64,000 nt of DNA from Bdellovibrionales bacterium (GCA_050248995.1 JBFWRI010000002.1:17355-81354); one strand, 5' to 3'; shown: positions 30,592 to 35,897, numbered from the stretch's first letter. Translations and numbers: made by a program. The notes: generated by a model not told the origin, from the letters alone.

Positions 30592-30668
30592 GGGCGTATA
30601 GCTCAGTTGGTTAGAGCGCTACCTTGACATGGTAGAGGTCACAGGTTCGAGTCCTGTTACGCCCACCA
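30592..30668 (+). tRNA. tRNA-Val (anticodon GAC)
   Basis: The sequence is GGGCGTATAGCTCAGTTGGTTAGAGCGCTACCTTGACATGGTAGAGGTCACAGGTTCGAGTCCTGTTACGCCCACCA. The anticodon loop is TTGACAT. Confidence 0.9.
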
Positions 30669-30685
30669 CTATTCCATGAAAAGTT

Positions 30686-32462: not shown

Positions 32463-35400
32463 TTATGAGCCTCGGCCGCCCACGCCACCCCCATTGCTGC
32501 CACCGCCATTATCTTGCCCACCACCACGACCTAATGGCGCGTTAGCTCCACCACTTCCGCTAGGAGCAGGTTCTGCGGCAGCAGGAGCTGCGGGAGCTGC
32601 CGGCGGCGGGGAGTTACTAGGCTTAATCACTGCCTCAACCCTATCCTGAACACCCCCTGTAAAGGTTGCACCTTTCCTAGCTTCCTGGAACTTACTCTCT
32701 GACTCCTCAATGATATGCTGCTGCTCGCCAATCTTGCCTTTGATTTCAGCCTGCCTGCCAGCATTGGGCTCGGCATAAAGTTCTTTTGTTAAACGCGCGC
32801 GTTCCTTAACCGCAGCCGAACGACGCCCCCAGTGCTCACTTGCTTCAGCACGCGCTTCAGCACGCGCTTCACCAATGCGACCTTGTGCAGTCATGCGCCG
32901 CGAAACTGGTGACGCTATTTTGCCACCAAGATGGCCAAGACCACTGCTTGCTGTTGCGCCGGCACGACCCAGCATGCGGCCAATTGGGCCACCACCGCCT
33001 GAGCCACCGCCACCTTTTCCGCCGCCGCCACCACCCTTATCGCCACCGCCACTACCACGGCCGCTGATTTTGGGCGTATCGCCATCTTCAACAGCGTCGC
33101 CACTACCGCCCCTGCCACCACCACCGCCGCCTTTGAGCAGACCTTTCGTGGCGGGCGCGACAACACTTTTGTGAACAGCATCTGCTGTGGTGCCGATGGC
33201 CTTCATACCGCCCTGCGCCATATCAACAACGGCAGCTTCGTTGATATCGCTGTGGGCGTTGTAGAACGAGTAGCCCTGCTGGCCGAACCAACCCATCGAC
33301 TTGTTGGCGATTTCATCGATGATCTTGAAGCTGGCCTGGCACATGCTGAAGGCGTTGAACGCATAGATCAGCGCGAAGATGATAGATGTGATAACAAATA
33401 CCTTGCCATCACCCCACACGGCATCCAGCGCCGAGCGGAACATCCAGTTCAGCAGGAACATGCCGATGGTCAGCATGATAATCGAACAGATCAGGCCGAT
33501 AACCAGCAGCACAGGCCGCAGCGCGATACTGAACAACATCGAATAACCGGCCTTGGCGTTCCCCATAATACCTTCCGCCTTGGGCGACAGGTGCGCCAGT
33601 GCGAACAACGGCATACCTACAATCGCTTCCAGCACGGCCAACAACCACGAGAACGTAGACAGCAGGAAACGGATCATTGGTGTCAGCGGTAGAATAAAGG
33701 CCAGCATCAGCGCGCCGCTGAACAGCAGCGGCCCCATCATGAACACCATGGCCAGGCCGCCAGTGCCGAAAATCATCGACAGGCCGATGAATGACAGCGC
33801 GATCCAGTACAGGGCGTGGCCGAACGCAAACAGGTTCGGCAGCGGGTCGCGCATACTGGGCGCAACTAGGTTCATGAAATAGTCTTTATCGAAGCTGAAG
33901 AAATTGCGGATGCTGGCAAGAACGCCAGAAATACCACCGGCAGTCGCGGTTTCGTTCTCGCCGTCATCAAAGGGCTCAAACCTTCTGTCATCTGTTAAAG
34001 AGACAATGTTTGATATCATACTGGGTCTTTCTTCCAGCGCCTCATAACCAATTTGCAATGCGTTTGTCACCATTGCCGAGTAGGGTTTACCGGCATGAGC
34101 GTAGCCCTGGCTGTCATCAGCGCCGCGTAAGCTGCGCATGAAACGGCACCTGTTATTAGGCACGCCGTCGACCACACTACCTAAACCTTCGCACTTCAGC
34201 TTATCAGTCTCCGTTTTACTTCTGAAAACACTGCCTAGCTTGACGGTCGGACTGAGGTCATAAAGATCGTGGATCTGCTTTTGCGCCATGGCGATGCGCA
34301 TATAGCGCGAACCGGCCGCCATCCAGCCTAGCGGGTTATCGCTTTCCATTTCGGTTCTAAGGTTGGAAAGGATCGCGCGATATGTTGCATCGGCCTGCTC
34401 TGTGATCGCTGCTTCATATTCCGCGACCGCTGCATAAATGGCCGCAACTGCCTGTATGTCCGTATCGGGCACCGGCTTGCCATGGCAGTTGCGCGAACGC
34501 TCGTCCGTCATCGACAGACCAACCTGCCCCACGGGTATGCCTAGCGGCATGGTTTGCGGCCAGCGCAGGTTTGTGCGCGGATAGGCATTATACATCGCCG
34601 TGAGAGGCGTAAAATTTGGAGTCGTTGCATTGGCGTCGCTGTACCGGCCCGCAAAAAGAACGCCGGCAAAACCACACACAGCATCATCGATTGCCTTAAA
34701 ATGTATATCAATCAGGGTTACCATATCTGTGCGCGCCTGACGTATAACCTCCGCTGTTGTTCGGTCAGGCCCGGTGATTGTCTCGGCTACCGTCTCGCCC
34801 GGGCTGGGCCATTTCACCGTGCCGCACAGGTTTTTATCAAGGCCAGGACCATACTTGATTTGTGTCTCGCCTGAAAACCGCAGCAGGTTGAAGTGACCGC
34901 GCACAACTTCTGAATCTGTCCCCGTCAGCAGGTTGCTGTCACCTGTTCCACTAAGCGTTTTCTGGTTGATATCGATTTGGCACAAGCGGATAAGTGTCAA
35001 ATCATGGATATGGTCTCCAAGCGTTGTCGATGGGCGGAAGGGAGCCCTTTCACCTTCGGCCGGGTCTTCGGGCGGTAGGAATGTGTCAGCTGCCGCAATC
35101 CACACCCGTGACGCAAGACCCGAACCAAGTTTAGCAACTTCCAGCACGGCATACTGTGCTGTATTCAGGCCGGTGCCCAGCGGCACCAGCAGGCCAATAG
35201 CTAACACCAGGCGCAGCGGTGCCCACACTTGATCGGCGCCGCCCAGCGGCTTACCTTCCCATGCAGCTGTTACAACAAGGTGCAACACATGATACAACAC
35301 CATGAACGACGCGAAGACTAGAATGGCGCGGCTGTAAAAGCCCAGCATGGTGCGCAGCAGTTCCTGGAATATGCCGCTCGCCTCGCCCCCTAGAGTATAC

Positions 35401-35897
35401 CCATCGAGAGTAAATCCTTCGATTTGAAGCACAAGACTATCAACGACATCACCGACCTTGTCGCTTTCGGGCGGTGTAAACATGCCGCCGCCTTCGGCCG
35501 CGTGTGCGGCGCTGGGACCGGCGATGAATAATAGTATCGCAACAACAATCCACAACGCCGTTGCGATTAGCAGGCCCCACGTAGCGATAAAGAAAATATT
35601 TTGCGGCAGCTTGTCTTTATCACGCCAATCAAATCGCGCGTACGTTTCATTAAACAGGTCAGCCAGCGTAAAACGCGCGCCCGGTGCGAAGAAGCGGTGG
35701 TTTGTTTCCAGCATGCCGCTGGTAACGAACAGCGTTGCCAGCAGGCTGACAAACATCTGGAACGACAGGCCAATGGACTGTGTGCTTTTGCCAAGTTCCG
35801 GATGAAAGAAGAAGCGCGCCCAACTGGTTTTCTTTCCAGATGGATCACCACCCGGTTGTCCCGGGCCACCGAAATTGAAAAAGTTACCAAAATTCAC
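32463..35897 (-). CDS. Hypothetical large polytopic membrane protein (1144 aa) with a central soluble domain and a Gly-rich disordered C-terminal tail
   Basis: It uses a GTG start with an AGGGGA SD-like sequence 11 nt upstream. The N-terminus MNFGNFFNFGGPGQPGG is Gly/Phe-rich. About four TM helices sit at the N-terminus, followed by a roughly 450-aa hydrophilic domain and about six further TM helices (LYWIALSFIGLSMIF, GPLLFSGALMLAFILPL and others). The C-terminus carries GGGGGGRGGSG...GGGGGGKGGGGSGGGG and PPPAAPAAPAAAEPAP tracts. Confidence 0.6.
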   Translation of the reverse strand: MNFGNFFNFGGPGQPGGDPSGKKTSWARFFFHPELGKSTQSIGLSFQMFVSLLATLFVTSGMLETNHRFFAPGARFTLADLFNETYARFDWRDKDKLPQNIFFIATWGLLIATALWIVVAILLFIAGPSAAHAAEGGGMFTPPESDKVGDVVDSLVLQIEGFTLDGYTLGGEASGIFQELLRTMLGFYSRAILVFASFMVLYHVLHLVVTAAWEGKPLGGADQVWAPLRLVLAIGLLVPLGTGLNTAQYAVLEVAKLGSGLASRVWIAAADTFLPPEDPAEGERAPFRPSTTLGDHIHDLTLIRLCQIDINQKTLSGTGDSNLLTGTDSEVVRGHFNLLRFSGETQIKYGPGLDKNLCGTVKWPSPGETVAETITGPDRTTAEVIRQARTDMVTLIDIHFKAIDDAVCGFAGVLFAGRYSDANATTPNFTPLTAMYNAYPRTNLRWPQTMPLGIPVGQVGLSMTDERSRNCHGKPVPDTDIQAVAAIYAAVAEYEAAITEQADATYRAILSNLRTEMESDNPLGWMAAGSRYMRIAMAQKQIHDLYDLSPTVKLGSVFRSKTETDKLKCEGLGSVVDGVPNNRCRFMRSLRGADDSQGYAHAGKPYSAMVTNALQIGYEALEERPSMISNIVSLTDDRRFEPFDDGENETATAGGISGVLASIRNFFSFDKDYFMNLVAPSMRDPLPNLFAFGHALYWIALSFIGLSMIFGTGGLAMVFMMGPLLFSGALMLAFILPLTPMIRFLLSTFSWLLAVLEAIVGMPLFALAHLSPKAEGIMGNAKAGYSMLFSIALRPVLLVIGLICSIIMLTIGMFLLNWMFRSALDAVWGDGKVFVITSIIFALIYAFNAFSMCQASFKIIDEIANKSMGWFGQQGYSFYNAHSDINEAAVVDMAQGGMKAIGTTADAVHKSVVAPATKGLLKGGGGGGRGGSGDAVEDGDTPKISGRGSGGGDKGGGGGGKGGGGSGGGGPIGRMLGRAGATASSGLGHLGGKIASPVSRRMTAQGRIGEARAEARAEASEHWGRRSAAVKERARLTKELYAEPNAGRQAEIKGKIGEQQHIIEESESKFQEARKGATFTGGVQDRVEAVIKPSNSPPPAAPAAPAAAEPAPSGSGGANAPLGRGGGQDNGGGSNGGGVGGRGS

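Follow-up and report, generated by a model that had tools for sequence, protein, structure and literature searches.

The stretch of DNA analysed here, 64,000 nucleotides from a Bdellovibrionales bacterium (GCA_050248995.1 JBFWRI010000002.1:17355-81354; hereafter the window), carries the gene for a DotA/TraY family protein of 1144 amino acids (aa) upstream of a gene for a giant fibre with a predicted C-terminal Peptidase_S74 domain. The protein belongs to a distinct chromosomal clade of alphaproteobacterial DotA-like proteins, and the genes of this clade are repeatedly located close to genes for proteins that begin with the same helix motif, including the fibre of the window. Overall, the protein is a DotA/TraY homologue that had already been annotated as such; its stand-alone context is unusual, and its genetic link to the fibre is suggestive but unproven.

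A DotA/TraY family protein and a giant fibre

The open reading frames (ORFs) of 1144 and 553 aa and the tRNA-Val that the first-pass annotation placed upstream of the giant fibre gene are all real. The main features of the locus, in coordinates of the window, are the following:

32463..35897, minus strand: gene of the DotA/TraY family protein, 1144 aa (GenBank MGE3769527, identical to P0001)
35058..35816, minus strand: N-terminal hydrophobic-helix block of the DotA-like protein (aa 28-280); orthologue identity 52-62%
33846..35057, minus strand: variable hydrophilic 'extended' domain of the DotA-like protein (aa 281-684) with six Cys; orthologue identity 17-40%
33273..33845, minus strand: C-terminal hydrophobic-helix block of the DotA-like protein (aa 685-875); orthologue identity 39-66%, predicted local distance difference test (pLDDT) 70-85
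32466..33272, minus strand: C-terminal tail of the DotA-like protein (aa 876-1144); orthologue identity 17-30%
30686..32347, minus strand: 553-aa ORF (GenBank MGE3769526, hypothetical protein)
30592..30668, plus strand: tRNA-Val, anticodon GAC (ARAGORN; Rfam RF00005, 75.8 bits)
21774..30458, minus strand: giant fibre ORF, longest frame, 2894 aa
21774..30326, minus strand: giant fibre gene from the ATG at 30326, 2850 aa (GenBank MGE3769525, 'tail fiber domain-containing protein')
30174..30326, minus strand: basic leader and N-terminal helix of the fibre, MKKASRLSNCARARPQKSWAARMMLG-FALAPILYIIALAGIAGTVLFTGY, from the sequence
29469..30260, minus strand: conserved N-terminal domain of the fibre; identity 75-77% to L013 and 32-35% to L017

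The 1144-aa protein is a member of the DotA/TraY family. It is matched by the NCBIfam model TIGR04346 (DotA_TraY) with 226.3 bits against a cut-off of 100 (E 7.7e-67), and GenBank already names the identical protein 'DotA/TraY family protein', so that it can no longer be called uncharacterised, as it had been at first. A phmmer search of the PDB sequences gave DotA of Legionella pneumophila (9ngy) as the sole match (E 2.1e-15), aligning aa 122-270 with DotA 9-147 and aa 707-830 with DotA 717-847; these two regions are the two hydrophobic-helix blocks. The AlphaFold model of the protein, built with 12 homologues, has a mean pLDDT of 54.8, with values of 70-85 in the helical blocks. Foldseek ranks 9ngy first for this model (E 8.6e-14, probability 1.00, 912 aligned columns), at low TM-scores of 0.28 and 0.36. 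Of the two kinds of likeness that the first-pass annotation had suggested, the one to DotA/TraY is therefore confirmed by a family model above its cut-off and by a solved DotA structure that is both the sole PDB sequence match and the top fold match.

The other suggested likeness, to VirB6/TrbL, finds no such backing. A Pfam scan of the 1144-aa protein gave no family at E <= 1, including TrbL/VirB6, and the next-best Foldseek matches, the VirB6/VirB5 (TrwI/TrwJ) stalk chains of R388 (7o3v, 8rt9), are not significant (E 0.18-0.5). Membership in VirB6/TrbL was rejected on these grounds, and the resemblance holds only as a functional analogy: DotA and VirB6 both form central pentamers, but VirB6 is three to four times smaller, and the window offers as candidate client a fibre of 2850 aa with a pilin-like helix in place of a hairpin pilin like VirB2. 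The protein also fails the equivalog model for Legionella-type DotA (NF033886; 158.9 bits against a cut-off of 500).

A hydropathy scan of the 1144-aa protein places N-terminal hydrophobic segments at residues 41-60, 100-135, 183-213, and 223-244, a hydrophilic stretch of about 445 aa at 245-690, and a C-terminal hydrophobic block of about five to six helices at 692-853, which bears out the order of four N-terminal segments, hydrophilic domain, and C-terminal block proposed earlier. The remaining sequence features described at that stage are likewise present, namely an FG/NF-rich N-terminus (the protein starts with MNFGNFFNFGG) and a tail with Gly/Lys-rich tracts (PPPAAPAAPAAAEPAP) and a PAAPAAP tract. 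Between orthologues, both hydrophobic blocks are conserved (39-66% identity), whereas the extended domain and the tail vary (17-40%). An alignment reveals invariant family residues that the protein has in common with 11 homologues; those of the N-terminal block include WAPLRLVLAIGLLVPL, and the C-terminal block, the most conserved part of the family, contains an invariant P-L-x-A-L-A-H-L core (MPLFALAHL in the window).

The extended domain takes the place of the IcmX-binding extended domain of DotA. Its cysteines are located at positions 306, 358, 408, 471, 569, and 584, and two of them (C306 and C358) are invariant in 12 homologues, which is consistent with the presumed periplasmic location of the domain. 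The tail, which is presumed to be cytoplasmic, combines Gly-rich disordered tracts with a long helical, coiled-coil-like segment (residues 997-1091) that is confidently predicted in the AlphaFold model. According to the alignment, the long tail is missing from the homologues of about 900 aa that are conjugative or embedded in type IVB secretion systems (T4BSS).

In Legionella, DotA forms a pentameric inner-membrane chamber and, together with IcmX, the central 'protochannel' of the Dot/Icm machine (PMC12501162). The extended domain of DotA binds IcmX, a secreted periplasmic protein with a signal peptide, and the characterised DotA depends on IcmX and DotG as well as on over 20 further proteins (PMC12501162). 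The protein of the window resembles Legionella DotA in the family model that it matches, in its similarity in both helix blocks, in its best fold match, and in its general layout, which consists of helices, a Cys-containing hydrophilic domain of about 400-500 aa, further helices, and a Gly/Ser-rich C-terminal end. The four residues that line the neck of DotA (L719, I722, F725, and M729) align with I709, T712, L715, and F719 of the window protein, three of the four being hydrophobic. It differs from Legionella DotA by about 120 extra N-terminal residues, by the tail of about 270 aa with its long helical segment, by an extended domain without sequence similarity, and by its failure to match the equivalog model. 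The genetic context is equally different, because the gene lies in a housekeeping part of the chromosome beside a giant fibre gene, with no icmX, dotB/C/D, or other dot/icm gene nearby.

TraY of IncI1-type (I-type) plasmids and other conjugative DotA/TraY proteins are matched by the same TIGR04346 model, and the N-terminal extension of the window protein aligns with conjugative homologues (P0007 and P0011-P0017). Unlike the window protein, the conjugative proteins are only about 900 aa long, lack the long tail, fall into a different clade, and are encoded beside genes for a relaxase, a coupling protein, or other components of a type IV secretion system (T4SS). Among the ORFs of the 64-kb window scanned against Pfam and NCBIfam, no other T4SS gene (DotB/C/D/G/H/I/L/M/O, IcmX/TraW) was found; the earlier statement that such genes are absent holds for every ORF scanned against either database.

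The giant ORF appears, from its sequence, to encode a protein of the trimeric-fibre type with a C-terminal S74 self-cleaving chaperone domain. Peptidase_S74 (PF13884) matches aa 2729-2780 of the 2894-aa frame with 49.5 bits against a cut-off of 22, the catalytic SDxxxK motif is present as SDARLK from residue 2729, and tail-fibre families of PHROG match the ORF with an E value of 1.8e-57. An origin of the fibre from a prophage or tailocin was considered and dismissed, because the scan of window ORFs revealed no phage genes. At the start of the fibre, a basic leader and a Gly precede FALAPILYIIALAGI, and a hydropathy scan identifies this leader helix as the sole strong hydrophobic segment near the start.

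The N-terminal domain of the fibre has the invariant patterns QLDPWG-YYI-CRW and ISAG--G-L-T-C, together with two conserved Cys. It has no Pfam family, and a PDB profile search gave only one chance match to an antibody and no pilin. Two further searches with this domain came back empty in a manner that is not to be read as absence: a word-indexed search returned nothing though the protein itself is in the collection, and a metagenome scan with the domain alignment, a low-complexity query, also missed the source contig of L013.

The fibre invites comparison with the MAT fibres of Bdellovibrio bacteriovorus (PMC10769870), which are also long, trimeric fibres of bacteria with an S74 end, an SDxxxK motif, and a conserved N-terminal domain; the source of the window is likewise labelled Bdellovibrionales. 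The N-terminal domain of MAT fibres is thought to hold the fibre on an element of the cell surface, which was left unidentified (PMC10769870). MAT fibres begin with an ordinary signal peptide and then a beta-rich domain (about 130 aa; PMC10769870), whereas the window fibre has its basic leader, then a hydrophobic helix that looks uncleaved, and after it a conserved domain of another kind, a distinction drawn from the description of MAT fibres only. No DotA-like neighbour has been reported for the MAT genes (PMC10769870).

Recurrent co-location of DotA-like genes with helix-motif proteins

Relatives of the DotA-like gene were collected by homologue searches and two collection scans, which yielded about 30 loci (cited by number, such as L013). 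A rough neighbour-joining tree of 36 DotA-like proteins separates three groups. Clade A, a distinct chromosomal clade of Alphaproteobacteria, comprises the window protein, P0002, P0004, and the proteins of L012, L013, L014, L004, L017, L006, L018/L019, and L011. The flanking genes of this clade look like housekeeping genes (TrcR, identified by Pfam; RecA, SecA, ThrRS, and TsaD, read from N-termini), and inspection of the visible flanks (<=10 kb), short of a systematic scan, revealed no T4SS gene. Clade B combines DotA genes embedded in T4BSS clusters with conjugative TraY proteins encoded beside a relaxase and a coupling protein (L001). The DotA genes of L010, which neighbour IcmL/DotI and DotG/TraO, provide a positive control for a T4SS context, and L023, L025, and L028 share the neighbour families of L010 according to BLAST clustering. 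Clade C occurs in mobile contexts: the gene of L020, which serves as a second positive control, adjoins what looks like a complete conjugation cluster of the Trb (P-type) kind, and that of L026 a MobP relaxase. Two conserved ORFs, of about 730 and 360 aa, come after the DotA-like genes of this clade.

Synteny with fibre genes, which had been set beforehand as the check on the proposed link, was indeed found. The order TrcR, DUF1192, and DotA-like gene is conserved in the nearest relatives of the window. In L013, a DotA-like gene (31-38% identical overall) is followed by an antisense tRNA-Val and then by a fibre gene whose first ~260 encoded residues are 75% identical to those of the window fibre. 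In L017, a DotA-like gene of 1072 aa lies 4.5 kb upstream of a giant ORF of >1625 aa with a homologous N-terminal domain (32-35% identity), which keeps both the QLDPWG-YYI-CRW and the ISAG--G-L-T-C pattern. The genome GCA_041447075.1 has the same gene order by size (1192, 574, and >2567 aa).

Co-location with the DotA-like genes is not limited to giant fibres, because L004 and L011 encode small proteins of 222 and 258 aa that carry the fibre helix and lie close to DotA-like genes. When these small proteins are compared with the fibres by hhalign, only the helix of 25 residues aligns. The helix (G-FALAPILY-IIALAGI) occurs within 5 kb of a clade-A member at five loci with four sets of flanking genes, carried three times by a giant fibre and twice by a small protein:

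Window, 30174..30326, minus strand
L013, 4621..
L017, 17925..
L004, 5932..6600, minus strand
L011, 4574..5350, minus strand

The consensus of the helix in the three fibres is FA[LV]APILY[IL][IL].L.G[IV]A, preceded by a basic leader and a Gly. The pattern over all five proteins consists of a basic leader, a Gly, [FLI]A[LIV][AG]P[IV]L[YF], and a hydrophobic helix.

A regular-expression scan detected the helix motif in five loci of clade A (197 kb searched) but nowhere in the remaining DotA-like loci (332 kb). Since the flanking genes of the pairs differ (TrcR, RecA, SecA, ThrRS), the association of clade-A genes with helix-motif proteins is not fully explained by inherited synteny.

The components of the locus have diverged to different extents. 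Relative to L013, the N-terminal domain of the fibre is 75% identical, the hydrophobic blocks of the DotA-like protein about 50%, and its extended domain 17%. Relative to GCA_041447075.1, EF-G is >=90% identical and the DotA-like protein 48%.

Several DotA-like genes have other neighbours. A conserved family of about 730 aa is encoded just downstream of DotA-like genes (1070-1300 aa) in L009, L020, L021, L024, L026, and L029, and a second conserved family, of about 360 aa, comes after it in three or four loci (L021, L024, L026, L029). Neither corresponds to a known family. Tandem DotA-like paralogues are present in L009 and L010. In L017, a prepilin gene (8998..9657, plus strand; MKRRG-FTLTEMAIVL, PF07963 N_methyl with 23.5 bits against a cut-off of 21.2) is co-oriented with the clade-A DotA-like gene and located 296 bp upstream of it, with the giant helix-motif ORF downstream.

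Possible roles of the DotA-like protein

The neighbourhood evidence makes a functional link between the DotA-like protein and the fibre plausible. To our knowledge, DotA and VirB6 have been studied only as the core of large secretion machines; that clade-A genes without neighbouring machine genes track a helix-bearing protein family suggests a solo reuse of the central platform of a T4SS. The preferred reading, to which we assign a probability of roughly 40%, is that an oligomer of the DotA-like protein would serve as a stand-alone platform for docking, anchoring, or extracting the neighbouring fibre. The fibre would be inserted in the inner membrane through its N-terminal helix, and the oligomer, recruited away from a full secretion machine, would dock, anchor, or extract the membrane-embedded fibre. 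The model for this arrangement is VirB6, the counterpart of DotA in the unified T4SS nomenclature, which has been proposed as a pilus-nucleation platform (PMC12857230). The VirB6 complex has been proposed as the docking platform for membrane-embedded pilin (PMC12857230), and the fibre on its DotA-like platform would parallel the docking of VirB2 and VirB5 on VirB6.

The 'export or anchoring module' of the first-pass annotation is, in this form, a hypothesis drawn from gene neighbourhood alone. It would make the DotA-like protein a concrete candidate for the anchor of S74 fibres on predatory bacteria, a point left open for MAT fibres (PMC10769870). A broader generalization, in which small-genome, probably predatory or host-associated Alphaproteobacteria possess an envelope system with a lone platform of the DotA/VirB6 class for proteins with a pilin-like helix, ranging from pilin size to the 2850-aa S74 fibre, is quite improbable; if true, the fibre would be displayed for cell-to-cell contact. 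A literature search found no paper on orphan DotA-like genes in Alphaproteobacteria or on a link between DotA and a fibre.

Several observations weigh against a stand-alone platform. Beyond family membership, the argument is built from the gene neighbourhoods of a few dozen loci from metagenomes; the closest ones are not independent, because they have a wider synteny in common (TrcR, DUF1192, tRNA-Val). The antisense tRNA implies that the fibre gene is not co-transcribed with the DotA-like gene, and no motif protein is present at four clade-A loci that include several kb of flanking sequence (L006, L014, L018, L019). Every characterised DotA or VirB6 that we know of works in a machine of at least 12 proteins, with ATPases and an outer-membrane complex, neither of which is visible at the locus. 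A lone inner-membrane platform would give the fibre no route across the outer membrane, and a pentameric platform would be symmetry-mismatched to a trimeric fibre. The strong conservation of the N-terminal domain of the fibre relative to L013 (75%), set against the 17% of the DotA-like extended domain, argues against a co-evolving interface. Confidence in the model of the DotA-like protein is moderate (mean pLDDT 55), and the search for dot/icm genes covered the 64-kb window, which is part of a 105.6-kb contig of a metagenome-assembled genome.

The last of these points leads to an alternative that we consider somewhat unlikely, namely that the DotA-like protein is part of a full T4BSS or I-type conjugation machine encoded elsewhere and that its adjacency to the fibre is inherited synteny. 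In Legionella, dotA and the majority of the icm genes occupy separate regions of the chromosome, and the view of the present genome is limited to 64 kb. The many partners that the characterised DotA requires, IcmX and DotG among them (PMC12501162), also speak for a dispersed machine, as do the other alphaproteobacterial DotA-like genes that lie in T4BSS clusters (L010; by neighbour families also L023, L025, and L028) or beside relaxases (L001, L026) or a Trb system (L020), and the broad synteny around the locus among the closest relatives. However, copies embedded in T4BSS clusters have their T4SS genes adjacent, whereas none was noticed in the visible flanks of clade A, for which no systematic scan was made; clade A stands apart from these copies in the tree; and the protein fails the Legionella-type equivalog model (159 bits against a cut-off of 500). 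The association with the helix motif persists over four sets of flanking genes, which simple inherited synteny does not explain, and the one sequenced Micavibrio genome (ARL-13), which need not carry a DotA-like gene, has been reported to be without a type IV secretion system (PMC3189940). If other dot/icm genes do lie elsewhere, the protein is simply a correctly annotated DotA homologue beside an interesting fibre gene.

It is also unlikely that the fibre is handled by a type IV pilus or type II secretion system (T2SS), with a prepilin-like signal that lacks Glu5 and the fibre at the pilus tip, and that the role of the DotA-like protein is unrelated. Some pilins and pseudopilins carry large C-terminal modules, and minor pilins of the tip, such as those of the GspK type, lack Glu5. 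By eye, the start of the fibre looks like a class III (prepilin) signal, with a short basic leader ending in Gly at -1 and a hydrophobic helix of about 22 residues; as in type IV pilins and pseudopilins, members share the helix alone. The motifs DPWG-YY and SAG-DG of the N-terminal domain presumably recall pseudopilins of the GspG type, a true prepilin is encoded directly upstream of the DotA-like gene of L017 (23.5 against 21.2 bits), and an ATPase of the T2SS/type IV pilus family is encoded 13-14 kb away. Only the Gly at -1 and the hydrophobic helix fit a prepilin, however; position +5 is Pro, not Glu. The N-terminus of the fibre gave no match to N_methyl (PF07963), T2SSG, or TadE in Pfam even at E <= 1, the PDB profile search yielded no pilin, and hhalign against the L017 prepilin gave a probability of 0.2%, so that the likeness to pilins stays visual because every profile test failed. 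There are no pilus-assembly genes adjacent to the fibre gene, PilC, PilM-Q, and PilD were not found among the window ORFs scanned, and the recurrent pairing with DotA-like genes would be left unexplained. A different division of labour, in which the DotA-like protein forms a channel with the 553-aa protein as its functional partner, a divergent stand-in for IcmX/TraW (VirB5 class), is very unlikely. The gene of the 553-aa protein lies directly downstream of the DotA-like gene in the same orientation, separated by a spacer of 115 bp, genes of similar size occupy the same slot in two relatives, and both the 553-aa protein and the DotA-like extended domain, which is the IcmX-binding part in Legionella, evolve fast. 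By contrast, the 553-aa protein gave nothing against PDB sequences at E <= 10, in a library that should include the IcmX of 9ngy, and no match in Pfam, NCBIfam, or PHROGs; its single-sequence AlphaFold model (pLDDT 45) is unusable; and L013 lacks its gene but has an intact DotA-like gene. Moreover, IcmX is periplasmic and has a signal peptide, whereas the basic-flanked hairpin of the 553-aa protein predicts a cytoplasmic bulk, which does not fit an IcmX-like periplasmic partner. Least probable of all is that the DotA-like gene is a decaying, functionless leftover of an integrated conjugative element. DotA/TraY genes are common in mobile elements (L001, L014, L020, L026), and a tRNA gene, the classic integration site, adjoins the cluster. 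Yet the ORF is intact over 1144 aa. Several genomes have an orthologue at the corresponding chromosomal site, and these proteins retain the invariant residues and 46-66% identity in their hydrophobic blocks. No integrase, relaxase, or repeat-bounded island is present in the window, and the GC content of the cluster matches that of the surrounding DNA.

The intervening genes and the wider window

The 553-aa protein has only two hydrophobic segments in a hydropathy scan, a weak one at 105-123 and another at 141-175, and is therefore not polytopic, contrary to what had been assumed. The two segments form a hydrophobic hairpin (aa 105-175; 31823..32035, minus strand; hydropathy scan), flanked on both sides by Lys/Arg-rich stretches (AKQKKDLEFR and KPLLKFFNKNKGGKPG). 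According to the positive-inside rule, these basic residues predict that both large parts of the protein face the cytoplasm, so that its bulk is probably mostly cytoplasmic. Codon-position GC of the ORF shows GC1 > GC2, and another gene caller places the start at M35 (32245).

The protein matched only itself among 5.8 billion proteins in a word-indexed search and among 1.84 billion representatives in an exhaustive phmmer search, and it is not matched by a hidden Markov model of the ~730-aa partner family from other DotA-like loci. In L016, the slot between the DotA-like gene and the tRNA-Val holds a gene for a 592-aa protein that is similar only across the second hydrophobic segment (E 0.009) and shares the layout of the 553-aa protein: a hydrophilic N-terminal part, two hydrophobic segments, a Lys/Arg-rich stretch, a low-complexity linker, and a helical C-terminal part. 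The corresponding gene of GCA_041447075.1 (574 aa) is known by size only and, if its protein is included in the collections searched, did not surface as a match to the 553-aa protein. In L013, this slot, which ends at the 3' end of the tRNA-Val, contains no gene. The protein had been put forward as a candidate export or anchoring partner; given its absence in L013 and the lack of homologues in these searches, it is now regarded as a dispensable, fast-evolving accessory with one membrane hairpin, not a core partner. The variable slot spans 30669..32462 in the window, 1605..3530 in L016, and 4204..4235 in L013, and no integrase or repeats were seen there.

L013 and L016 each have a tRNA-Val at the equivalent position, in the same orientation. 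The tRNA-Val of the window is an ordinary housekeeping gene, conserved in place and incidental to the cluster. The co-orientation claimed for all members of the cluster does not extend to it, since it lies on the plus strand, antisense to the three protein genes; membership of the tRNA in an operon is ruled out by this orientation, which also implies that the fibre gene is transcribed separately from the DotA-like and 553-aa genes. The AT-rich spacers mentioned in the first-pass annotation are a partial description: the 115-bp spacer between the 1144-aa and 553-aa genes has 31% GC against 55.6% for the window, but the one between the tRNA-Val and the giant gene has 50-53%. The three proteins are indeed rich in Gly and Ala, which together make up 24% of the 1144-aa, 27% of the 553-aa, and 26% of the giant protein.

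Two further features of the window bear on the locus:

36074..36256, minus strand: DUF1192 gene, 60 aa (PF06698, E 3e-22), a context gene only
16409..17356, minus strand: T2SSE/PilT-like ATPase, 315 aa (PilT 131 and DotB 64 bits, both below cut-off, as for every specific NCBIfam model)

The DUF1192 gene lies upstream of the DotA-like gene in the same orientation, an arrangement repeated in L012 and L013. The ATPase, which had been tied to the cluster as an orphan PilT/VirB11-like protein, scores higher with PilT than with DotB and stands alone between a GGDEF-EAL gene and hisS, with no pilus or secretion genes around it. Two genes, hisS and that of the PBP1-like protein, come between the ATPase gene and the cluster, and no clade-A DotA-like gene has a homologue of it nearby; there is therefore no basis for including the ATPase in a module, and it was rejected as a component.

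The PBP1-like gene (18781..21777, plus strand) encodes a transglycosylase domain at aa 137-287 and a transpeptidase domain only at aa 821-927, with a long unassigned insert between them. It converges with the fibre gene, the stop codons of the two overlapping by 4 bp, and a short hairpin at 21766..21780 is terminator-like on both strands.

The left flank of the cluster thus described comprises genes for the GGDEF-EAL protein, the PilT-like ATPase, hisS, and the PBP1-like protein and, beyond these, for SNase-domain, polyhydroxybutyrate-metabolism, SDR, and EAL-domain proteins and an rRNA operon, whose 16S gene is at 4126..5624. The right flank contains DUF1192, TrcR, solute-binding proteins, and four ORFs without a family. 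PFK, an ABC transporter, and a block of genes for ribosomal proteins, EF-Tu, and EF-G (~43.9-59.6 kb) were inferred from the Pfam families of the syntenic locus in GCA_041447075.1 and by inspection, and the names EF-G and S7 come from GenBank records. TrcR and DUF1192 are typical of Alphaproteobacteria. The NCBI taxonomy files the alphaproteobacterial predator Micavibrio under Bdellovibrionales, and a Micavibrio-like origin of the window is plausible.

The four ORFs without a Pfam family (308, 308, 272, and 264 aa) lie at 60262..63961. They were considered as relatives of the ~360-aa partners of other DotA-like genes and discarded, there being no similarity. The 272-aa ORF is very hydrophobic, and two of the four contain HExxH-type motifs (HEGGH and HEFCH), which suggests metallopeptidases.

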